IMG/VR virus record: IMGVR_UViG_2579778919_000012
Origin: a virus
Taxonomy: Duplodnaviria; Heunggongvirae; Uroviricota; Caudoviricetes
Length of the DNA: 8,472 nucleotides
Direction: 5' to 3' (one strand)
The notes beneath the pieces were generated by a model that was not told where the DNA came from, ran no database searches, and saw only the letters and a list, made by a program, of their open reading frames with translations. This document shows, in pieces, positions 1 through 8,472 of this stretch (position 1 is its first letter; every line of letters starts with the position of its first letter). The position numbers and the translations under genes are program-made.

Positions 1-648
1 TTACTTCCATCCACACGCTTTTTGAAGTGGCTTCAATGCCTCTGACAGACCAGCAACATCAAATGTCGCACTCACGGGACTTTCATTGTAAGGCGTGATC
101 TGAGTAAACATTGAGTTAGCCTGGCTCAGCGCCTTGACGAACTCGATGACATTGCCACGATAAAATACCGATTTGGTATCGCTAGATATGTCCCATGTTT
201 TCGTTTTTGCCTTCTGTTTATCCAAGCGAGATAACATCTGTGTTTCGTTCAACCCAAGATAGGTATCCCAATTGAGGAAAAGTTCTGTTTTTTTCTCGCG
301 GCAAGTGATGTAAAGACTTGGTGTGATCGATTCCCCAAACTGCGACCGGAAAGAATCATTAGCAGAAAGGCTAACATAAACATTCTCTGAATCATCCACG
401 GGTGAAGTTTTCGTGGATACCTGCCATTTTCCAACACCTACTACTGGCTTAGCCTCTTCGGCTACTTTCGGTGGAAGAACCTTATCGTAACAAGCTAAAC
501 GCGCATCACTTTTTGCCTCGGATTGGCATTTCATTAATGCGTCATTGTTAATATCGGCTTTAACTGGTTCTACCGCATACGCTGTTGATACAGCAGAAGA
601 GCAAAGCGCCATAGCAATGATTATCTTTTTCATACCATTACCTTTCAT
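1..648 (-). CDS. Hypothetical secreted/periplasmic protein (cleavable Sec signal peptide, cysteine-containing mature domain); family not recognised
   Basis: 215-aa ORF. N-terminus MKGNGMKKIIIAMALCSSAVSTAYA-VEP has a hydrophobic core and an AYA cleavage motif; no canonical lipobox. The true start may be the internal ATG at 633 (MKKIII...), which is preceded by AAGG about 7 nt upstream. The annotated ATG at 648 overlaps the upstream gene's stop as ATGA. GC is roughly 43-46% by eye, against 55-62% in the tail genes. Confidence 0.55.
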   Translation of the reverse strand: MKGNGMKKIIIAMALCSSAVSTAYAVEPVKADINNDALMKCQSEAKSDARLACYDKVLPPKVAEEAKPVVGVGKWQVSTKTSPVDDSENVYVSLSANDSFRSQFGESITPSLYITCREKKTELFLNWDTYLGLNETQMLSRLDKQKAKTKTWDISSDTKSVFYRGNVIEFVKALSQANSMFTQITPYNESPVSATFDVAGLSEALKPLQKACGWK

Positions 649-998
649 GATTTCGGGCGAGTAAAGAAAACAAACATTCCGATAATGATATCGCCAATAA
701 CCCAGATGGTTCCCAGCATCATCATCCCCAGCCCCGTACCAATTGCGGCTCCGGCCCGTTCTGCGTCTGAGGCTGCGTTATTGATAACGTCACTACTGCC
801 GCCAGCCCCGGCAAAAATGCAATAGATCATAAAGATGTTAAACAGGATAAATATCCACTTAACGATCTTGCCAAAAAATGAGCGCTTCGGCTTTCTGACC
901 TGATGGCCGCAAGACGGACATTTAAACGCTGAATCACTAATTTCTTTACTGCATTCCGGGCAGTTTACTAATGCCATTTTCCTAGACTCCATAGACAT
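645..998 (-). CDS. Small membrane protein with N-terminal zinc-ribbon (CPEC-x12-CPSC) and two predicted transmembrane helices; function unknown
   Basis: 117-aa ORF. The CxxC...CxxC motif is followed by a basic stretch (RKPKRSFFGK) and two hydrophobic segments (IVKWIFILFNIFMIYCIFAGAGG and MMMLGTIWVIGDIIIGMFVFFT). An alternative start at 977 (MALVNCPEC...) has a better GGAG/AGGA Shine-Dalgarno. The stop overlaps the downstream ORF start (ATGA), suggesting translational coupling. Confidence 0.55.
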   Translation of the reverse strand: MSMESRKMALVNCPECSKEISDSAFKCPSCGHQVRKPKRSFFGKIVKWIFILFNIFMIYCIFAGAGGSSDVINNAASDAERAGAAIGTGLGMMMLGTIWVIGDIIIGMFVFFTRPKS

Positions 999-1040: not shown

Positions 1041-1075
1041 AATAAATAAAAATTAACCCGCCATATAGGCGGGTT
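1041..1075 (-). terminator. Rho-independent terminator downstream of ogr (possibly bidirectional)
   Basis: An 8-bp GC-rich stem (1055-1062 aacccgcc pairing with 1068-1075 ggcgggtt) with a 5-nt loop. On the - strand it is followed by the T-rich tract AATTTTTATTTATT (1054..1041). It lies 3 nt after the ogr stop codon. On the + strand the same hairpin is followed by ATTTT. Confidence 0.6.
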
Positions 1076-1078
1076 ATT

Positions 1079-1321
1079 TTAGAGTGCCAGCGATAACTGA
1101 TCTTCGCCGTGGTGACTTCGTGGAAAAGCTTCTTGTGGCACCATCGCGCCGGGCGCTGGCTGGGTCTGGTTTAGTGAACCGTCTATTTCCGTCATGCTGG
1201 TGAAACAGTACCCGCACAACATATTTTGACACTGGTGATAGCTGCGTCGTACAAGCAAACTCAGCTCAACGCTGGTTCTGGTTTTTGCTATTGCACGGCA
1301 GCGAGGACAGCGCATTGCCAT
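1079..1321 (-). CDS. ogr: Ogr/Delta-family zinc-finger late transcription activator
   Basis: 80-aa ORF with Cys spacing C5-x2-C8-x22-C31-x4-C36 and the motif YHQCQN-x2-C, matching the P2 Ogr zinc finger as I recall it. Strong RBS AAGGAGG 8 nt upstream of the ATG. Sits immediately downstream of gene D, as in P2. Confidence 0.88.
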   Translation of the reverse strand: MAMRCPRCRAIAKTRTSVELSLLVRRSYHQCQNMLCGYCFTSMTEIDGSLNQTQPAPGAMVPQEAFPRSHHGEDQLSLAL

Positions 1322-1369
1322 ACGCGGGCCTCCTTTCAGGACTGGTTAATATCAACGCAAGTATAACGC

Positions 1370-2488
1370 TTAAGACGTTGAATCGTCACTCTCCGCTGTC
1401 CAGTCGTCGATTTTTACTTCCAGTTCCAGCGACGTGGTAAACCCTCCCCCGCCAATATCGTGAACGCACCGCGTTATCGTCCAGTTCCCACTGTCGATCG
1501 TGGACTTAAAGCCGTAGACGCTGGCGGGCTGTTCCGGGTACAAATCTGCGCGGCCACGCGCCAGGGTGATGCTGAACGTAGCCGCACCGCGCTGCAACTC
1601 CCGCCACTTAGCCGCAGCGGCACGCTTCGCCGCCTTTTCCGTCTTGAAGGTTTTACGTATAACAAAAACGTTACCTTCGGCCCCGGCCAGATAATCACCC
1701 TCTTTTTTGCTGGATGCAGGCTCTTTCTTTTTGGCCTGGCTGGTTCGTCGCCTGCGGGTTGTTTTCTTCACGGTAGTGGATGGTTTCTTGCCAAAGTTGA
1801 GATCAAGCCAGTATGCAGTTACGCCCGTGTACGCGTCGCGGTCAGCTACGTTAAAGCTATGTTTATCACCGCTTGACCGGACTATCTCGATCACCGGCAG
1901 CGGCTTGCCGCTCTGCGTCACTCCTTTGCCCGGCGTGATAAACAGAAGCATACCGTTTTTAATGGTTGCCACCGCGCCCAGCATTTCGGCCATGCGCGTT
2001 AAGAAGCTGATATCTGATTCACTCGTCTGATCGGCGTGGTCTATCTCAATCTTCGCCAGTTCTTCGCTGACACCCGCACGCAGATCGTAGCGACTGGCAA
2101 TGCTGGCGACCACATCCCCCACGGTAATATCGTGCCAGCTATATTCCCTTTTCACGTTGAAGGTATCGCGGAAATCTGCGCTTCTGGCACTGATCGTTAG
2201 CTGGTCAGGCGGGCCTGAATGACCTATCTCATCAACCGTATACACGCCCTTAAAAACCAATGGATCATTATCCCAGCCCAGCGCCACCGATATCTTTGCG
2301 CCGCGTGGTGGTAATGCTACCTGCCCGTCTGCATCATCCAGAGTCAGATCCAGCGTGTCCGCTTCAAATCCCCGGTTATCTGTCAGGGAAAGAGAGATCA
2401 ACCGGTTATCCAGCGCCGTAAGCTGATTACCTTCAATTTCAATACTGAACGCCGGGCGCGGCGAATATCGGTTTTCTGTCGTGTCCAT
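1370..2488 (-). CDS. D: Late control gene D protein (P2 gpD family; baseplate hub, VgrG/gp27-like)
   Basis: 372-aa ORF, close to the ~387 aa of P2 gpD, lying directly upstream of ogr on the same strand. RBS GAAGGGG 5 nt before the ATG. Contains an internal Lys/Arg-rich linker. Family call is from recalled similarity and synteny, not a search. Confidence 0.8.
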   Translation of the reverse strand: MDTTENRYSPRPAFSIEIEGNQLTALDNRLISLSLTDNRGFEADTLDLTLDDADGQVALPPRGAKISVALGWDNDPLVFKGVYTVDEIGHSGPPDQLTISARSADFRDTFNVKREYSWHDITVGDVVASIASRYDLRAGVSEELAKIEIDHADQTSESDISFLTRMAEMLGAVATIKNGMLLFITPGKGVTQSGKPLPVIEIVRSSGDKHSFNVADRDAYTGVTAYWLDLNFGKKPSTTVKKTTRRRRTSQAKKKEPASSKKEGDYLAGAEGNVFVIRKTFKTEKAAKRAAAAKWRELQRGAATFSITLARGRADLYPEQPASVYGFKSTIDSGNWTITRCVHDIGGGGFTTSLELEVKIDDWTAESDDSTS

Positions 2489-2554
2489 ATCAACCCCTTC
2501 ATCATGATGGGGTACATCGTCGCCACGCGCGCGCGCATGAACAACGCCCCGTCA

Positions 2555-2574
2555 TTGTTGCAGGTTGCTGACAA
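2555..2574. promoter_or_regulatory. Ogr-type late promoter activator site (TGT-N12-ACA dyad) in the divergent D/FI intergenic region
   Basis: Exact TTGT-N12-ACAA inverted repeat (tgt 2556-2558, aca 2571-2573), centred at 2564.5. That is about 81 bp upstream of the FI ATG and about 76 bp upstream of the D ATG. P2/P4 late promoters carry TGT-N12-ACA centred near -55. A weak -10-like GATATT lies at 2611-2616 for the + strand. Confidence 0.6.
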
Positions 2575-2645
2575 CCCTTATTCATCGCATCAGCCTGCCA
2601 TTGCCGCAATGATATTCGCAGTCATTAAACTGGCGAGGCAAATAC

Positions 2646-3839
2646 ATGGCCACTAACTACCATCACGGTGTAACCGTCACGGAAACCACCGACCTTAGCA
2701 CGATGATCACCGACATTGATTCGGCGGTGATCGGCGTTGTCTGCACCGCTGATGATGCGGACGAAACAGCGTTCCCGCTGGATACCCCTGTACTGATCAC
2801 CCGCGTGGCTAACATGCTGGGCAAGGCAGGTAAAACCGGCACCCTGTTTACCACCTTGAAAGCGATTTCAGACCAGACCAGCCCGCAAACCATTGTGATC
2901 CGCGTTGCTGATGCTGCAAATATCGAACCGCCAGAAGGCGGCACCGCACAGACACAGGATCAACTGGTTATTGGCGGCACCGATGCAAACGGACGCTTTA
3001 CCGGCATGTACGCGCTGCTGTCTGCCGAAATGCGCGTAGGCGTGCGCCCGCGTGTGCTGGCTGTTCCCGGTCTTGATACGGAAGCGGTGGCCGCACAACT
3101 CGGCGTCATTGCCGAAAAGCTGCGCGCGTTTGCTTACGTGGCAGCGAACGGCTGCAACAGCATCGCCGAAGTGAAGGAATACCGCGAACAGTTCTCCCAG
3201 CGTGAAATGATGGTTATCTGGCCTAATTTCATCTGCTACGACACCAACGCCGGAGCGAATGCCACCGTGCCCGTGGGTGCCCATGCGGTTGGGATGCGCG
3301 CCAAAATCGACGCAACGCAGGGCTGGCATAAAACCATTTCCAACGTGCCCGTTAATAACGTGCTGGGGATGGATCGGGATATCTATTTCACGTTGCAGGG
3401 CACCGATACCGACGCCGACGAACTGAACGCAGCAGGCGTTACCACGCTGATCAAGCAGGACGGCTACCGCATCTGGGGATCGCGTACCTGCGACGCGGAA
3501 ACGTATATCTTCGAAAGCTATACCCGAACCGCGCAGATCGTTGCGGATACCGTCGCCGAAGCACATTTCGCCTATGTTGATAAACCGCTTACCCCGTCGC
3601 TGGTAAAGGACATTGTGGACGGCATCAATAAGAAGCTGACCTCATATGTGACGGCTGGCAAGCTGCTGGGCGCCCGCTGCTGGTATGACCCGGAACCGAA
3701 TACCTCGGAAACCCTGCGCAATGGTCAACTGACCATTAAGTACAACTACACCCCTGTTCCACCGCTGGAAAATCTCAGCCTGGTACAGGAGTTCACCGAC
3801 GAATATTTCGCTACGTTTTCCAGCGCAGTGAATAACTAA
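2646..3839 (+). CDS. FI: Contractile tail sheath protein (P2 gpFI family)
   Basis: 397-aa ORF (P2 FI is ~396 aa). N-terminus MATNYHHGVTV resembles P2 FI (MSDYHHGVQV) as recalled, with conserved-looking blocks such as LRAFAY, WHKT and YTPVPPLENL. RBS GAGG 7 nt upstream. Followed by the tube gene. Confidence 0.9.
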   Translation: MATNYHHGVTVTETTDLSTMITDIDSAVIGVVCTADDADETAFPLDTPVLITRVANMLGKAGKTGTLFTTLKAISDQTSPQTIVIRVADAANIEPPEGGTAQTQDQLVIGGTDANGRFTGMYALLSAEMRVGVRPRVLAVPGLDTEAVAAQLGVIAEKLRAFAYVAANGCNSIAEVKEYREQFSQREMMVIWPNFICYDTNAGANATVPVGAHAVGMRAKIDATQGWHKTISNVPVNNVLGMDRDIYFTLQGTDTDADELNAAGVTTLIKQDGYRIWGSRTCDAETYIFESYTRTAQIVADTVAEAHFAYVDKPLTPSLVKDIVDGINKKLTSYVTAGKLLGARCWYDPEPNTSETLRNGQLTIKYNYTPVPPLENLSLVQEFTDEYFATFSSAVNN

Positions 3840-3851
3840 CCGGGGGCGCTT

Positions 3852-4367
3852 ATGGCACTGCCTAAGAAACTCAAATATTTCAATATGTTCTTTGACGGGG
3901 ATAACTACTTCGGCATGGTGCCGGAAATCACCCCCGCCAAACTCACCAAAAAAACCGAAGACTACCAAGCGGGCGGTATGCCGGGTTCGGTTGCGGTGGA
4001 TCTGGGCTTCGACGCTGGCGCCCTGGATATGGATATCACGCTGGGCGGCATGGATGCAGGGCTAATGAAAAAATGGGGCGTTACCACTGCGGACGGAATG
4101 CAGGTGCGCTTTGCTGGCTCTTACCAGGACGATGCGACCGGCGACGCCGTACCGTGCGAAATCCAGACGCGTGGCCGCTTCACTGAACTGGATCCCGGTT
4201 CGGCAAAGGTTGGGGATGATACTTCGCATAAGTACACCCTGAAAAACACCTATTACAAGCTGACCATCAATAGCGAAGAAATTATCGAAATTGATGTGCT
4301 CAACATGATCTACAAAGTTGCCGGTGTGGATGTGCTGGAAAAACACCGCGCTAACATCGGCTTATAA
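3852..4367 (+). CDS. FII: Tail tube protein (P2 gpFII family)
   Basis: 171-aa ORF (P2 FII is ~172 aa). Begins MALPKKLK and ends HRANIGL, resembling P2 FII as recalled. Sits immediately after the sheath gene, separated by 12 bp. Confidence 0.88.
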   Translation: MALPKKLKYFNMFFDGDNYFGMVPEITPAKLTKKTEDYQAGGMPGSVAVDLGFDAGALDMDITLGGMDAGLMKKWGVTTADGMQVRFAGSYQDDATGDAVPCEIQTRGRFTELDPGSAKVGDDTSHKYTLKNTYYKLTINSEEIIEIDVLNMIYKVAGVDVLEKHRANIGL

Positions 4368-4381
4368 GGAAACCCGGCACC

Positions 4382-4717
4382 ATGAGCAAGACCAAAGAAA
4401 ACACCGTTATTCTTACCGCCCCTATTACGCGCGGTAAGACCAAAATCACCGAAGTGGCGATCACTTCCGTGCTTAAACAGGCTGGATCACTGCGCGGCTT
4501 AAAAGCCTATGACGTGCTGACGTCCAACTATGACGCGCTGGTTATTCTGCTGCCCCGCGTTACCGCTCCGGCATTAACCGCCGATGAGATTGCCCGAATG
4601 GATACCTGGGATTTTTGCCAGTTAGCCAACGCGGTGGTTGATTTTTTGCAACCCTCTTCGGATCTGACCGCGACGGATACGGGCAACGAATCATCCGATG
4701 CCCCTGCGAACGCATAG
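4382..4717 (+). CDS. E: Tail assembly chaperone gpE (zero-frame product)
   Basis: 111-aa ORF between the tube and tape measure genes. RBS AAGGAAAC upstream. Contains the slippery heptamer T_TTT_TTG at 4642-4648 in the frame expected for a -1 shift. Confidence 0.8.
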   Translation: MSKTKENTVILTAPITRGKTKITEVAITSVLKQAGSLRGLKAYDVLTSNYDALVILLPRVTAPALTADEIARMDTWDFCQLANAVVDFLQPSSDLTATDTGNESSDAPANA

Positions 4718-4842
4718 AAGACCTGATGGCAGATATCGCCGTCATATTCCACTGGCGGCCGGTAGAGATGGACGCCATGACGGTACAGGAAATACTGTTA
4801 TGGCGTGATCAGGCGGCTGCGCGCAGTGGTGGAGATCACTAA
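4382..4842 (+). CDS. E': Tail assembly chaperone gpE+E' (-1 frameshift fusion product, about 153 aa)
   Basis: E residues 1-89 followed by 64 codons in the -1 frame (ATLFGSDRDGYGQRIIRCPCERIEDLMADIAVIFHWRPVEMDAMTVQEILLWRDQAAARSGGDH). I translated this by hand and found no stop. The fusion stop TAA (4840-4842) abuts the T start codon at 4843. Confidence 0.6.
4642..4648 (+). other. Programmed -1 ribosomal frameshift slippery site (TTTTTTG) for gpE to gpE+E'
   Basis: The heptamer T TTT TTG is in the X_XXY_YYZ register of the E frame (codons TTT 4643-4645, TTG 4646-4648). The -1 frame is open from 4648 to a TAA at 4840-4842. The same heptamer is used in P2 E/E'. Confidence 0.65.
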
Positions 4843-7800
4843 ATGGCAGACCGCAATTTAAATATCAGGGTGGCATTCAGCGCCCTGAATAATATGTCCC
4901 GCCCTGTCAACGCGGCGCGCCAGAGTGCCGCCGCGTTGGCGTCTCAAATCAATCAGACCAAAACCAGCATTAAAGGGCTTGAGCGTCAGGCAACCAGCTT
5001 TGACCGCCTCACCGCAGCCAATAAAAAAACCACCGAACAACTGGCCCAGGCGAAAGAACAGGCCCGGCAAATGGCGGCGGCTTATGGCCCGTTACGCCAG
5101 CGCAGCGCCGAACAGGTTGCCGCCCTCAATCAGCAACGTGCAGCCATTCGCCAGTTAACCCAGCAGCAGAAAGGCGAGCAGACGCAGCTTAACCAGTTGC
5201 GCGCCAGCTTCTACAGCGAAGGCATTGCGATCAGCAGCGCCAGCCGGGCGACGGAACAGATCAACCAGCGCACCGCGCAATACAACCGCCAGCTTGCCGA
5301 ACAGCAGCGACGGCTTGACGCTGTTAACCAGGCGCAGGCCCGTTACAGCCGCGCCAAAGAAACCGGCGAAAAGATGATGAGCGGGGGGATGAAAACCGCC
5401 GCAGTAGGGGCGGCAACCCTCGCACCTGTCGCCGCTGCGGTTAAATCATACAGCAGCCTTGAAGACGCCATGAAAGGCGTAGCCAAACAGGTAAACGGCT
5501 TGCGTGACGACAGCGGCAACCGCACCCCGCAGTATGAAGAAATGCAGCGGGCGATCATGGATGCCAGCGAAAAGCTACCAATGGCTAACGGCGCTGTTGA
5601 CTATGCCGCCCTGGTCGAAGGTGGCGCGCGCATGGGCGTGGCAAACAGCGATGATCCGTGGGAAAAACAAAAAGCCGATCTGCTGGCTTTCGCCAGCATG
5701 GCGGCAAAAGCTTCGGTAGCCTTTGAACTGCCCGCCGATCAGCTTTCTGAAAGCCTCGGTAAGATTGCCGGGCTGTATAAAATCCCTACCCAGAATATTG
5801 AACAGTTAGGCGACGCCATAAACTACCTGGACGATAACGCGAAGTCGAAAGGCTCCGATATTATCGACGTGCTCCAGCGCGTTGGCGGACTTGCCAGCCA
5901 ACTGGATTACAAGCAAGCCGCCGCGCTGGGTTCCACCTTCCTGACGCTTGGATCACCTGCCGAAGTTGCCGCCAGCGCAACCAATGCAATGGTGCGCGAA
6001 CTATCGATCGCCACAGTACAAAGCGATAAATTTTTGGGTGCGCTGGATGAAATCGGCATCAATGCTGAAAAAGTCCAGAAAAGCATGTCAGTGGACGCGA
6101 TGGGCACGATCATTTCAGTGCTGGAAGCGTCCAAAAAACTTGCACCAGATAAGCAGGTAGCCAACCTTACTCAGATTTTCGGTAAAGAGTTCGGCGATGA
6201 TGCGCAGAAACTTGCGAACAACCTGCCCGAACTACGCCGCCAGATAGAACTGACGCAGGGCGCAGCCGCTAAAGGTTCCATGAATCGGGAATCTGATATC
6301 AATAAAGCGTCCCTTTCAGCTCAGTGGCAACTGACCAAAACCGGCGCGGTTAACGCATTGAGTTCAGCAGGGGAAACGCTCCGCGAACCGCTGATGGATA
6401 TCATGCTTACCGTCAGTAAGGTGGTTGGCAGCGTCCGCCGCTGTGTTGAGGCAAACCCGGCTCTGGTTGGCTCAATCATGAAAGTCACCGCAGCCATAGG
6501 CGCGTTGCTGGTTGTCGTGGGTGGCCTGATGCTGACCATCGGCGCAGTGCTCGGCCCGATGGCACTTGTTCGCCTCAGCTTCACCACGCTGGCTGGCTCC
6601 GGTGGGGTAACTCCCCTCATAGGCTCGCTGGGAAAATTATCCAGCACATTACGCGGGCTGATCCCCTCACTATCTGGCGTGGGCCGAAGTATTAAAGACT
6701 GGCCTGCCCTCTTCCGATCTGCTGCGTCTGGCATTACCCAATTTAGTAAACAAGCTATTGGCGGGTTAAACACAGCGTTAATGGCACTTTCACGCGGTGC
6801 TGTTGCTGCCGGACAGGGGCTATTTACCCTATTCACAAGGCCTATGACGGCTATAACCTGGCTTGGTAATGGCCTCAGAACTCTGGCGACCTCCGGTTTC
6901 GGCGCTTTGCTGAACGTTGGACGCACCGTAATGATGGCGTTGGGTGGCGGGTTATCATTACTTCTTAGCCCTATTGGAATACTGGTAATCGCTTTATCAG
7001 CAGCAGCGATCGCCGTTATTAAATTCTGGGAACCTATAAAAGCCTTTTTCACTGGCTTTTACACCGGGTTAATGAGTGGCTTACAGCCTTTAACCTCAGC
7101 ATTTAGTACAGCCTTTGCACCACTAGCCCCACTCTTTGACTCTATCGGTAATGCTGTCGGTGGCGTCTGGGAGTGGTTCACAAAACTATTCGAACCTATC
7201 CAGTTCTCCAGCGAAGCGCTAGCCTCCTGCACCAGTGCCGGGGAAACGTTCGGTAAGGTTGTAGGTAACGCTCTATCTGCATTAACACCAATAATCGAAG
7301 GAATAGCGCGCGGTATAGGATGGGTACTGGAAAAACTCGGCGCCATCCCCGACGCAACAAAAGCAGCGCAGCAAGCTGCGGAAAGTATGCACAAAGACCC
7401 TGTTGTCTGGGAGTGGGATCCGCAGCAAAAGAAAATGGTTAAAAAGGGTTGGAACTGGTCGCCGAAAGACGATCAGCAGAAGAAAACCAACCAGAAGCAA
7501 CAGCAGGCCATTGACCAGCAGAAAAAGCAGGAAAGCTTAATTAACTCGCTCAAGGGCCCGGCCAACATCGTGCCGAAGATGAGCAGCAGCCTGGATAAGA
7601 TCGCCACCAATACCACGGAGAAGAAAGACGGCCCCGGCGAAATTGTCTTCAAGAATAAGCAGCCCTATATCCCGATCCGTGGTGGATATTCGGAACCGCT
7701 TAAGCAGGTGCAGCGCCAACTACCATCCCTTACCGATTGGGTGACGCAGCAGGCCGGATCGCTGATCGCTTCCGTTACGCCTTGGCAGGTTGAGAAGCCC

Positions 7801-8013
7801 GCCGCACGGATGCCTGTTTCGGCGTCTCCGTCTGCGGCTTCCGTCGCTGCGCTGATGCCTGCTCCGGGTGGCGATGTATATAACCTTAACTTCGACTTTA
7901 GCGGCCAGAAACTGGATGAAGAAACCATTATCAGGCGCGTGCGCGAAGAACTTGCGTTAGCGAAGCAACAGGCCGACCGGCGCAAGCGCTCCCAACTGAC
8001 CGATCACGTCTAA
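4843..8013 (+). CDS. T: Tail tape measure protein (P2 gpT family)
   Basis: 1056-aa ORF in the canonical position after E/E'. It has a Gln/Ala-rich N-terminal coiled-coil-like region, a central Gly/Ala/Leu-rich hydrophobic segment and a Lys/Gln-rich C-terminal stretch, all typical of tape measure proteins. It is longer than P2 gpT (~815 aa). Confidence 0.9.
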   Translation: MADRNLNIRVAFSALNNMSRPVNAARQSAAALASQINQTKTSIKGLERQATSFDRLTAANKKTTEQLAQAKEQARQMAAAYGPLRQRSAEQVAALNQQRAAIRQLTQQQKGEQTQLNQLRASFYSEGIAISSASRATEQINQRTAQYNRQLAEQQRRLDAVNQAQARYSRAKETGEKMMSGGMKTAAVGAATLAPVAAAVKSYSSLEDAMKGVAKQVNGLRDDSGNRTPQYEEMQRAIMDASEKLPMANGAVDYAALVEGGARMGVANSDDPWEKQKADLLAFASMAAKASVAFELPADQLSESLGKIAGLYKIPTQNIEQLGDAINYLDDNAKSKGSDIIDVLQRVGGLASQLDYKQAAALGSTFLTLGSPAEVAASATNAMVRELSIATVQSDKFLGALDEIGINAEKVQKSMSVDAMGTIISVLEASKKLAPDKQVANLTQIFGKEFGDDAQKLANNLPELRRQIELTQGAAAKGSMNRESDINKASLSAQWQLTKTGAVNALSSAGETLREPLMDIMLTVSKVVGSVRRCVEANPALVGSIMKVTAAIGALLVVVGGLMLTIGAVLGPMALVRLSFTTLAGSGGVTPLIGSLGKLSSTLRGLIPSLSGVGRSIKDWPALFRSAASGITQFSKQAIGGLNTALMALSRGAVAAGQGLFTLFTRPMTAITWLGNGLRTLATSGFGALLNVGRTVMMALGGGLSLLLSPIGILVIALSAAAIAVIKFWEPIKAFFTGFYTGLMSGLQPLTSAFSTAFAPLAPLFDSIGNAVGGVWEWFTKLFEPIQFSSEALASCTSAGETFGKVVGNALSALTPIIEGIARGIGWVLEKLGAIPDATKAAQQAAESMHKDPVVWEWDPQQKKMVKKGWNWSPKDDQQKKTNQKQQQAIDQQKKQESLINSLKGPANIVPKMSSSLDKIATNTTEKKDGPGEIVFKNKQPYIPIRGGYSEPLKQVQRQLPSLTDWVTQQAGSLIASVTPWQVEKPAARMPVSASPSAASVAALMPAPGGDVYNLNFDFSGQKLDEETIIRRVREELALAKQQADRRKRSQLTDHV

Positions 8014-8022
8014 GGCAATATC

Positions 8023-8472
8023 ATGATGATGATTCTGGGGATGTTCCCCTTTTCACTGCAAACCACACCTTACCAGAGTGCGAATAAAACCAACTCCTGG
8101 CGGCACGTCAAAAACGATCGCGTGGGGAAATCCCCGCGCTATCAGTTCATCGGCGCAGATGAAGAACCGTTCGTACTCAGCGGCACGCTGTACCCCGAAA
8201 TAAGCGGCGGTGATGTGTCGCTTGTCATGCTGGAAACTATGGCTTTTTCCGGGCGCCCGTGGCCCCTGATAGAAGGCACGGGCAGGATCTACGGCATGTA
8301 TGTAATTGAGCAGATCACGCAAAACCGGACGGAGTTTTTTAAGGACGGGAAGGCAAAGAAAATTGATTTCACGCTCAACCTGAAACGGGTAAGCGAGGAC
8401 ATACGGGAAAAGCTGGCTGAAACCACTACCGACGATCTCTTCTCTCTGGTGAAAACCAACCTTTCGATATAA
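8023..8472 (+). CDS. U: Tail protein gpU (P2 GpU family)
   Basis: 149-aa ORF directly after T (P2 gpU is ~159 aa). N-terminus MMMILGMFPF and the blocks RPWPLIEGTGRIYGMYVI and RTEFFKDG resemble P2 gpU as recalled. The stop codon is the last triplet of the window. Confidence 0.85.
   Translation: MMMILGMFPFSLQTTPYQSANKTNSWRHVKNDRVGKSPRYQFIGADEEPFVLSGTLYPEISGGDVSLVMLETMAFSGRPWPLIEGTGRIYGMYVIEQITQNRTEFFKDGKAKKIDFTLNLKRVSEDIREKLAETTTDDLFSLVKTNLSI

Follow-up and report, generated by a model that had tools for sequence, protein, structure and literature searches.

Divergent D-ogr and FI-to-U units in P2-like phages of Enterobacterales: inversion of a tail gene block and a predicted two-way late promoter

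In phage P2 the late genes FI-FII-E-E'-T-U-D-ogr follow one another on a single strand, as reading of the P2 record itself confirmed. In the stretch of viral DNA analysed here (the window; 8472 nt), D and ogr lie opposite to FI-FII-E/E'-T-U. This layout raises two questions: which of the two blocks was turned around, and from which promoter is D read?

Gene content and affiliation of the window

The first-pass annotation, made from the sequence alone, had placed D and ogr upstream of FI, on the other strand and divergent from it, with U as the last gene in the window, and had considered the order of FI-to-U relative to D-ogr to be unlike that of P2. Both statements were borne out, the former by the list of open reading frames and a Pfam search, the latter by comparison with the P2 record: ogr and D (1079-1321 and 1370-2488) are on the minus strand, FI-FII-E/E'-T-U (2646-8472) are on the plus strand, and the divergent starts of D and FI are separated by 157 bp. 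The genes and the signals flanking ogr are as follows.

1-648, minus strand: TagO/VasI-family lipoprotein gene (Pfam PF11319, 50.4 bits)
645-998, minus strand: zinc-ribbon membrane protein gene, cargo (weak zinc-ribbon Pfam matches, all below gathering cut-offs)
1054-1076, minus strand: intrinsic terminator of the D-ogr unit (9-bp stem with 6 GC pairs, followed by ATTTTTATTT)
1079-1321, minus strand: ogr, zinc-finger late-gene activator (80 aa; Ogr_Delta PF04606, 50.9 bits, cut-off 26.3)
1360-1389, minus strand: Pogr-like sigma-70 promoter, GTGACG-18-TATACT, overlapping the 3' end of D (consensus scan)
1370-2488, minus strand: D, baseplate hub/late control D protein (372 aa; Phage_GPD PF05954, 68.1 bits)
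2646-3839, plus strand: FI, tail sheath (three sheath domains, PF04984, PF17482 and PF22671; 52% identical to P2 FI)
3852-4367, plus strand: FII, tail tube (PF04985, 206 bits)
4382-4717, plus strand: E (PF10109, 23.1 bits, slightly below the 25-bit gathering cut-off)
4382-4842, plus strand: E+E', predicted -1 frameshift product (slippery TTTTTTG at 4642-4648)
4843-8013, plus strand: T, tape measure (PF10145)
8023-8472, plus strand: U, last gene of the inverted block (PF06995, 133 bits)

All of FI, FII, T, U and D exceed their Pfam gathering cut-offs and, with E included, the window holds the homologues that characterize a P2-like cluster. The ten gene products are the same as those of the P2 F operon, at 25–52% identity, T and ogr being the more divergent; D is 98.7% identical to SEN5 D and 50% identical to P2 gpD over 371 aa (48.5% in a second comparison). 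The ogr translation reads C5-X2-C8-X22-C31-X4-C36, which is the CX2CX22CX4C motif that defines Ogr/Delta activators (PMC3931495). The E/E' pair is recognizable at the sequence level: the -1 frame is open up to 4842 and its peptide (DLMADIAVIFHW...) matches P2 E', with a RefSeq 'GpE family' CDS covering 4768-4842. P2 shares the TTTTTTG frameshift site, a promoter of ogr's own and a common terminator beside attP; its ogr promoter and its terminator 'for ogr transcript and F operon' are annotated at places equivalent to 1360-1389 and 1054-1076, respectively. A TATACT/TATAAT-type -10 was found again ~35–45 nt before the ogr ATG in most divergent lineages. An Rfam scan of the whole window gave no RNA family at gathering score.

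The gene at 1-648, whose copy in the Escherichia coli 730V1 prophage is named 'T6SS-associated protein TagO' in RefSeq, has a GC content of 0.44 versus ~0.55 for the phage genes; it is a moron, a cargo gene placed between ogr and the end of the prophage, outside the tail cluster. The neighbouring gene (645-998) has 72–73% nucleotide identity with its counterpart in phages 500465-2, PhiR44_2 and Shae_phiSM.

Two close relatives, Salmonella phage SEN4 and, at 97.9% identity, the prophage of E. coli 730V1, were used for whole-genome context. The ICTV guideline for a genus is ~70% nucleotide identity over the full length; the window is 93.7% identical to SEN4 (77% of the 8.5 kb), and the near-identical 730V1 prophage is collinear with it. 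Salmonella phages SEN4/SEN5 (Senquatrovirus; KT630645/KT630646, NC_029015) match window positions 1055-8472 at this identity and have the identical order, G / U-T-E'-E-FII-FI (reverse) / D-ogr, with a D/FI spacer of 157 bp that differs by one base. SEN4 itself has neither of the two cargo genes (TagO and zinc-ribbon) that follow ogr in the window, its T is shorter and no invertase is found past its U. The window represents the right-hand end of an E. coli prophage of the P2-like family Peduoviridae, probably of Senquatrovirus type.

The FI-to-U block is the flipped part

Seen by itself, the 8.5-kb window simply has D-ogr opposite to FI-U, and identifying the piece that moved requires genomic context. 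The first-pass annotation had opted for an inversion or displacement of D-ogr to a place upstream of FI, or else a second D copy after U. Complete genomes make both variants very improbable, since FI-U is the odd block out: D-ogr is co-directional with V-W-J-I-H-G and O-N-M-L-X...S and adjoins att/int, exactly its position in P2, where V-W-J-I-H-G, O-to-S, FI-to-U and D-ogr are all annotated on one strand, whereas U-T-E'-E-FII-FI is antisense between G and D in SEN4 and in the 730V1 prophage. No second D follows U in any of these relatives. What comes next is a Hin-type invertase with tail-fibre genes in E. coli 730V1 and P88_4B11, convergent G in PhiR44_2 and SEN4, and two non-tail ORFs in Reipivirus. 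A search downstream of U for a remnant promoter or dyad found terminator-like hairpins only. The flipped part is therefore FI-FII-E-E'-T-U together with its pF promoter, and D-ogr keeps the P2 orientation.

The presence of an invertase in some genomes brings up another explanation, in which FI-U would be a programmed invertible segment served by a Hin/Cin-type enzyme and the window one of its switch states. A recombinase family gene indeed lies ~100 bp past U in E. coli 730V1 and P88_4B11, so that the suggestion of a recombinase adjoining the block holds for some members of the group; it does not hold for SEN4, PhiR44_2 and Reipivirus, which have the same layout without the invertase. The other expected mark, inverted repeats flanking the block, was not found: among the 25 longest listed pairs (38 found), none bridges the spacer and the region after U. 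Moreover, the invertase adjoins duplicated, oppositely oriented tail-fibre and assembly genes, its usual substrate, and all 112 loci examined have one and the same orientation, the canonical order being found in none with a D at least 61% identical. With neither crossover repeats nor both orientations detected, we regard a programmed switch as exceedingly improbable. No trace of a site-specific or repeat-mediated inversion of FI-U is visible today.

A probable single inversion in the ancestor of a large clade

The divergent layout is present in all 112 relatives with a D at least 61% identical, including members of three ICTV Peduoviridae genera. It was found in 80 of 80 IMG/VR loci (contigs; D 66–100% identical) and, with D at least 61% identical, in 33 species-representative Enterobacterales genomes of Salmonella, Citrobacter, Hafnia, Enterobacter, Pectobacterium, Photorhabdus, Xenorhabdus, Yersinia, Providencia, Morganella, Kosakonia, Klebsiella, Edwardsiella and Serratia. 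The 42 loci sampled at greater D distance have the P2 order; those with a D at most 57% identical are canonical except for one (L136), which has no FI-U block beside D. Xuanwuvirus (the E. coli phage P88 group) and Reipivirus (Klebsiella phage ST16-OXA48phi5.4) have the same flipped FI-U and divergent D-ogr, with D ~62% and U ~51–53% identical to those of the window. The first-pass annotation had itself allowed that its reading would fall if the divergent order were ordinary in a described group; this is the case for Senquatrovirus, Xuanwuvirus, Reipivirus and more than 100 prophages. The divergent layout is the normal, conserved order of a large described P2-like group.

If co-linearity of FI-to-ogr on one strand were taken as a mark of the P2-like cluster, the window would lack it, FI-U being opposite to D-ogr. 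The non-co-linear order is, however, a clade-wide variant and does not warrant exclusion from Peduoviridae, because ICTV lists SEN4, P88 and ST16-OXA48phi5.4 in that family.

Trees were built from D, FI and U by quick neighbour-joining with midpoint rooting, and the inverted set is monophyletic in each; since the loci were picked by their similarity to D, this monophyly is only as good as the sample. The trees also bear on the possibility that an FI-U cassette from a different contractile-tail phage was inserted in reverse. Mosaic exchange of tail modules is common among phages, and T is weakly conserved, with 25% identity to P2, and variable in length, as might be expected of such a replacement. 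However, FI and U split off the inverted clade in the same way as D does, and in tblastn comparisons the genes of the block resemble P2 (FI 52, FII 48, E 42 and U 48%) as much as those outside it (D 50, V 58, N 48, Q 51 and int 51%). The distance from the pF dyad to FI is, in addition, the same as in canonical relatives and P2. Replacement by a foreign module is consequently improbable, and the resident FI-U block was most probably flipped once, in place, in the ancestor of a broad Enterobacterales P2-like clade.

Predicted late promoters on both sides of a shared dyad

In P2-type late promoters a dyad is centred ~55 nt ahead of the start site, together with a -10 element and a -35 element of poor quality, and Ogr/Delta activators stimulate them by contacting the RNA polymerase alpha subunit. 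The first-pass annotation had reasoned that D would need its own promoter. This point gains support here: D is beyond the reach of pF, and a conserved promoter-like architecture faces it. The elements in the D/FI spacer are:

2516-2544, minus strand: predicted promoter PD, facing D (-35 TTGTTC at 2544-2539, -10 GACGAT at 2521-2516)
2556-2573, no strand assigned: dyad TGTTGCAGGTTGCTGACA (TGT-N12-ACA), predicted Ogr-binding site common to PD and PF; sole match in the window
2608-2613, plus strand: -10 AATGAT of predicted promoter PF, mirroring the PD -10 at 35–40 nt from the dyad edge

TGT-N12-ACA is the late-promoter consensus given in the Smp131 paper (PMC3931495), and its sole occurrence in the window falls inside the 157-bp spacer. 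A pattern this short should turn up 1.4 times in the window by chance alone, and four of its seven occurrences in SEN4 are in coding DNA; the argument made here is therefore from position, conservation and co-variation rather than from the match as such. Of 86 distinct D/FI spacers, 79 have a perfect dyad, whose 12 inner bases take 36 different forms; the other seven have one mismatch or an altered half-site. Hexamers of the form nAnnnT occur 34–41 nt from the dyad edge on both sides in all 79 dyad-bearing spacers, three offsets being allowed; since the relatives are phylogenetically non-independent, this count overstates the support. On the D side the 80% consensus of this hexamer is G..A..AT across 19 lineages differing by >15%.

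The geometry on the FI side is that of pF. Measured from the FI ATG, the dyad centre lies at 82 nt here, 83 nt at P2 pF, 82–86 nt in most relatives and 79–86 nt in the canonical ones. The predicted PF start (~2620) lies 25 nt ahead of the FI ATG, the P2 pF leader being 24–26 nt, and SEN4 PO has AATGAT at the same offset as the PF -10. Toward D, the predicted PD has a 17-bp spacer between -35 and -10, which holds a (CG)n run (2526-2536), and its start would be at ~2508, ~20 nt ahead of the D ATG. The two predicted starts are thus ~55–56 nt from the dyad centre, as in Ogr-type late promoters. The distance from dyad centre to D ATG is 68–82 nt in 45 of 56 distinct regions and only ~56 nt from the called ATG in a Yersinia-type lineage (11 distinct sequences), where the D mRNA would have no leader unless the start codon or the geometry differs. 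In the canonical relatives the opposite side of the dyad is occupied by a terminator instead of a promoter, and the PD core is absent from the sampled phages with P2 order. A small ORF across the spacer (2504-2656; SEN4_27 in SEN4) was discarded as coding since the open frame is lost in divergent lineages.

The half-site follows the late promoters of the same phage: Senquatrovirus has TGT at D/FI as well as at P/O and V, and Xuanwuvirus and Reipivirus, whose D/FI dyad geometry is otherwise the same, have TCT in its place at the D/FI and P/O dyads alike. Across the genomes compared, the D/FI half-site hence co-varies with the dyad of the P/O late promoters that each of them carries. In Xuanwuvirus the flanking ACAACAAAA is also common to the D/FI spacer and P/O.

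The D-side elements could alternatively be an ordinary sigma-70 promoter, or depend on a separate activator site, with the dyad serving pF only. The recognizable -35 (TTGTTC) and the 17-bp spacer are better than those of typical activator-dependent promoters and would suit such a promoter, as would the variable distance from dyad to D, down to 56 nt in the Yersinia type. The -10 (GACGAT) is nevertheless weak, and it mirrors the pF -10 exactly about the dyad in each of the 79 sequences. In SEN4, moreover, the same module (dyad, GTTGT, (CG)n and -10) precedes V and P, both known late operons in P2-type phages, and D of P2 is a structural late protein. We therefore consider Ogr-independent expression of D, or expression from a separate activator site, unlikely.

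The SEN4 V promoter (PV) and PD are identical at 30 of 36 positions, dyad outward; this likeness is lineage-specific and possibly reflects gene conversion. Copying from the V promoter was rejected as a general origin of PD: in Xuanwuvirus and Reipivirus S and V overlap, so that there is no separate V promoter region.

Proposed origin of the two-way promoter

The D/FI spacer is laid out like P2 pP/pO, with one dyad-symmetric site between divergent late operons. The single activator site annotated in P2 (3057-3087) lies between starts at 3016 and 3127, ~55 nt on either side, and PP' and PO' of Smp131 are placed on the same 18 bp (PMC3931495). The two cases differ in that pP/pO goes back to the ancestor of the family and has been mapped by experiment, whereas PD/PF is found in the inverted clade only and is deduced from sequence. 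By this likeness, D-ogr is most likely read from a new late promoter that shares its Ogr site with pF.

An in-place inversion of FI-U combined with a dyad-sharing promoter that drives D-ogr one way and FI-U the other is in our judgement the probable explanation of the locus. The segment pF promoter-FI-FII-E/E'-T-U of the ancestor would have been inverted where it stood, D and ogr staying put beside attP, and the ancestral F operon would have been split into two divergent units. The dyad-symmetric Ogr site of pF (2556-2573) would now lie between FI and D and may act both ways. To the right, the old pF core (-10 AATGAT, 2608-2613) would drive FI-to-U; to the left, the PD core (2516-2544) would drive D with read-through into ogr, transcription presumably stopping at the terminator at 1054-1076. 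An additional sigma-70 promoter of its own, in the D-ogr gap, would be retained by ogr. From these sequence features we infer that Ogr binds the dyad, where transcription begins and that expression of D depends on the shared site.

In P2 the final cistron transcribed from pF is D; in the window D would head a unit of its own. It is more likely than not that after the inversion the symmetry of the Ogr site turned pF into a two-way promoter, giving a fifth Ogr-dependent unit (PD-D-ogr), positive feedback on ogr and a D uncoupled from the sheath/tube operon.

DISCUSSION

The main value of these results is corrective: not all Peduoviridae share the synteny of P2. The flipped sheath-to-U block characterizes a whole clade, with three ICTV genera and prophages of ~20 Enterobacterales genera, and those who annotate prophages should not take it for a rearrangement or a faulty assembly. 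Neither the SEN4/SEN5 paper (PMC5261728) nor the P88 paper mentions inversion, gene order, orientation or rearrangement; the inversions discussed in the Xenorhabdus tailocin paper are those of tail fibres only, and the Burkholderia P2-like paper contains nothing that bears on a divergent D-ogr/FI layout. No discussion of promoter bidirectionalization in the flipped clade was found in the literature searched. The result does not open a long-standing question.

For specialists, the D/FI spacer provides a clean comparative case of a symmetric activator site that would serve two divergent late promoters, and the co-variation of its half-sites (TGT, TCT, TCT/AGA) offers a handle on Ogr-DNA specificity. 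If the proposed mechanism is true, the clade would be a natural example, on a clade-wide scale, of a promoter made bidirectional and thereby rescuing a split operon.

Gene order of the window

Genes were called in the window from six-frame ORFs and Pfam scans:

1–648, minus strand: TagO/VasI-family (T6SS-associated) lipoprotein gene
645–998, minus strand: zinc-ribbon membrane protein gene
1054–1076: intrinsic terminator, 3' of ogr
1079–1321, minus strand: ogr (PF04606; CX2CX22CX4C motif)
1370–2488, minus strand: D (PF05954)
2646–3839, plus strand: FI (sheath)
3852–4367, plus strand: FII (tube)
4382–4717, plus strand: E
4382–4842, plus strand: E+E', by predicted -1 frameshift (TTTTTTG, 4642–4648)
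4843–8013, plus strand: T (tape measure)
8023–8472, plus strand: U

These calls bear out the first-pass annotation in that ogr and D lie on the minus strand, divergent from FI–U, and the P2 order that it gave (FI-FII-E-E'-T-U-D-ogr on one strand) agrees with the P2 record. It had taken D-ogr to be the inverted piece; relative to P2, the position and orientation of D and ogr are unchanged, and the flipped piece is FI–U. The prophage of E. coli O19:H7 730V1 is 97.9% identical across the full window length and Salmonella phages SEN4 and SEN5 (Senquatrovirus, Peduoviridae) are 93.7% identical at 1055–8472; the window's phage is a member of Peduoviridae, most likely of Senquatrovirus. SEN4 (NC_029015.2) runs Q-P (reverse), O-N-M-L-X-lysis-R-S, V-W-J-I-H-G, then U-T-E'-E-FII-FI on the opposite strand, D-ogr on the V-G strand, int-C (reverse) and cox onwards; the 730V1 prophage has the same layout, with ogr at its end. 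The second D copy proposed downstream of U is absent from these relatives, where that place is taken by convergent G (SEN4) or by a Hin-type invertase and tail-fibre shufflon (730V1 and P88_4B11). In this host-range shufflon (with the invertase, 28580–31163 and 1323–3234 of the respective loci), tail-fibre and assembly genes are duplicated in opposite orientations; SEN4, PhiR44_2 and Reipivirus have no such region.

T is 3171 nt in the window and 2925 nt in SEN4; owing to this internal variation in length, BLAST matches to most relatives fall into two pieces. The cargo at 1–998 (GC 0.44 versus ~0.55) separates the ogr terminator from the prophage end (fieF side in 730V1), and SEN4 has a different gene there; the zinc-ribbon gene of the window has 72–73% nucleotide identity to phages 500465-2, PhiR44_2 and Citrobacter Shae_phiSM, the last match being annotated as tagO. 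In RefSeq, the SEN4 'late control protein ogr' is misannotated as a hypothetical CDS of 120 nt on the minus strand (22160–22279); tblastn places the intact ogr on the plus strand, at 22042–22281.

Distribution and origin of the inversion

Scanning IMG/VR with the D protein gave 302 relatives, and in all of the best 80 of these (D 66–100% identical) U-T-FII-FI immediately precedes D but in the opposite orientation, with J, V and G on the D strand. A GTDB scan (one genome per species, D alignment as query) yielded 80 loci. All 33 whose D is ≥61% identical have the inverted block, and their hosts are Salmonella, Citrobacter, Hafnia, Dryocola, Enterobacter, Pectobacterium, Photorhabdus, Xenorhabdus, Yersinia, Rouxiella, Providencia, Morganella, Brenneria, Kosakonia, Chania, Klebsiella, Edwardsiella and Serratia; at 57% identity or less the order is co-linear (FI-FII-T-U-D-ogr) in all except one locus, in which V and J adjoin D instead of FI–U. 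Named phages with the inversion include Xuanwuvirus P88_4B11, Reipivirus ST16-OXA48phi5.4, PhiR44_2 and several Klebsiella Kp48xx phages; SEN8, ST11-OXA245phi3.1, Wphi, P2 and Burkholderia and Ralstonia phages are without it. The non-P2 order is standard in at least three ICTV genera and visible in their records; the SEN4/5 and P88 papers, as far as searchable, do not comment on gene order. What had been flagged as non-canonical is thus the ordinary conserved order of a described group.

Quick neighbour-joining trees, built for D, FI and U from a sample of loci selected by D, each unite the 112 inverted loci in one clade. For proteins encoded inside the block, SEN4–P2 identity (FI 52, FII 48, E 42, U 48%) is on a level with that for proteins encoded elsewhere (D 50, V 58, N 48, Q 51, int 51%). 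Both observations argue against import of FI–U as a module, and the absence of the canonical order among loci with D ≥61% identical argues against a switch. The simplest reading is a single ancestral in-place inversion of FI–U, fixed since. The mechanism has left no visible trace: none of the longest 25 of 38 inverted-repeat pairs flanks FI–U, and the region after U contains hairpin terminators only. An invertase adjoins U in some members; SEN4, PhiR44_2 and Reipivirus lack it.

A dyad shared by predicted divergent promoters

The pF transcript of P2 has D as its final cistron and shares one terminator with the ogr transcript (P2 record); the expectation that D would need its own promoter after inversion is upheld. 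The sole TGT-N12-ACA in the window, the P2 late-promoter consensus (PMC3931495, citing Christie & Calendar 1985 and Julien & Calendar 1995), lies at 2556–2573 within the 157-bp D/FI spacer, a pattern weak on its own (chance alone would give 1.4 matches). The FI ATG lies 82 nt from the dyad centre; this distance is 83 nt at P2 pF and 79–86 nt in ~35 canonical relatives, which carry a terminator on the far side of the dyad. A perfect dyad is kept at this position in 79 of 86 distinct spacers (115 loci; related sequences, so counts are not independent), with 36 different forms of the inner 12 nt. In one Yersinia-type lineage just ~56 nt separate the called D start from the dyad centre.

The predicted -10 elements are:

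2608–2613: AATGAT, FI side
2521–2516: GACGAT, D side

An 80% consensus of 19 lineages differing by >15% retains A..AT on both sides, 36–40 nt from the dyad edge, and an nAnnnT hexamer occurs at about this offset (34–41 nt, three offsets allowed) on both sides in 79/79 dyad-bearing (related, non-independent) sequences; starts are therefore predicted ~55 nt from the dyad centre in each direction. From position, footprint, symmetry and the co-variation described below, we infer that the dyad is an Ogr site common to predicted late promoters PD (facing D) and PF (facing FI). This putative pair would be the second case of an established layout, because the P2 record annotates one activator site for divergent pP and pO, whose starts lie 56 and 55 nt away on its two sides.

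On the D side, the spacer after a -35-like TTGT(T/C)C includes an alternating CG run, a module found upstream of V and P in SEN4 as well. The run spans 9–11 nt between -35 and -10 in predicted PD, PV and PP (window 2526–2536; SEN4 3012, 9298 and 20827), reaches at least 6 nt in 64/79 D-side predicted promoters across lineages, and may act as a spacer or discriminator element in these activator-dependent promoters. The SEN4 V- and D-promoter regions (9263–9310 and 20790–20837) are identical at 30/36 positions from the dyad outward, including 9/12 of the inner dyad bases, which differ freely from one lineage to another; in this lineage, late promoters may have undergone gene conversion or duplication. 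Most lineages have a TATACT/TATAAT-type predicted ogr promoter in the D-ogr gap.

Co-variation of half-sites

Half-sites differ between genera and agree within a genome: TGT at P/O, V and D/FI in Senquatrovirus, TCT-N12-ACA at both P/O and D/FI in Xuanwuvirus and Reipivirus (L164 8849–9005; L167 3200–3353; L165/L168), and symmetric GTTCTC-N8-GAGAAC in two Providencia prophages (spacers L098–L099). This pattern suggests that the half-site co-evolved with Ogr specificity. S and V overlap in Xuanwuvirus and Reipivirus (L167 8626–9839; L168 11199–12418), which therefore have no separate V promoter region; there, all four late transcription units would depend on the two dyads at P/O and D/FI. The predicted PD/PF promoter with its common dyad, like the co-varying half-sites, is a modest by-product of the analysis that lends itself to testing.
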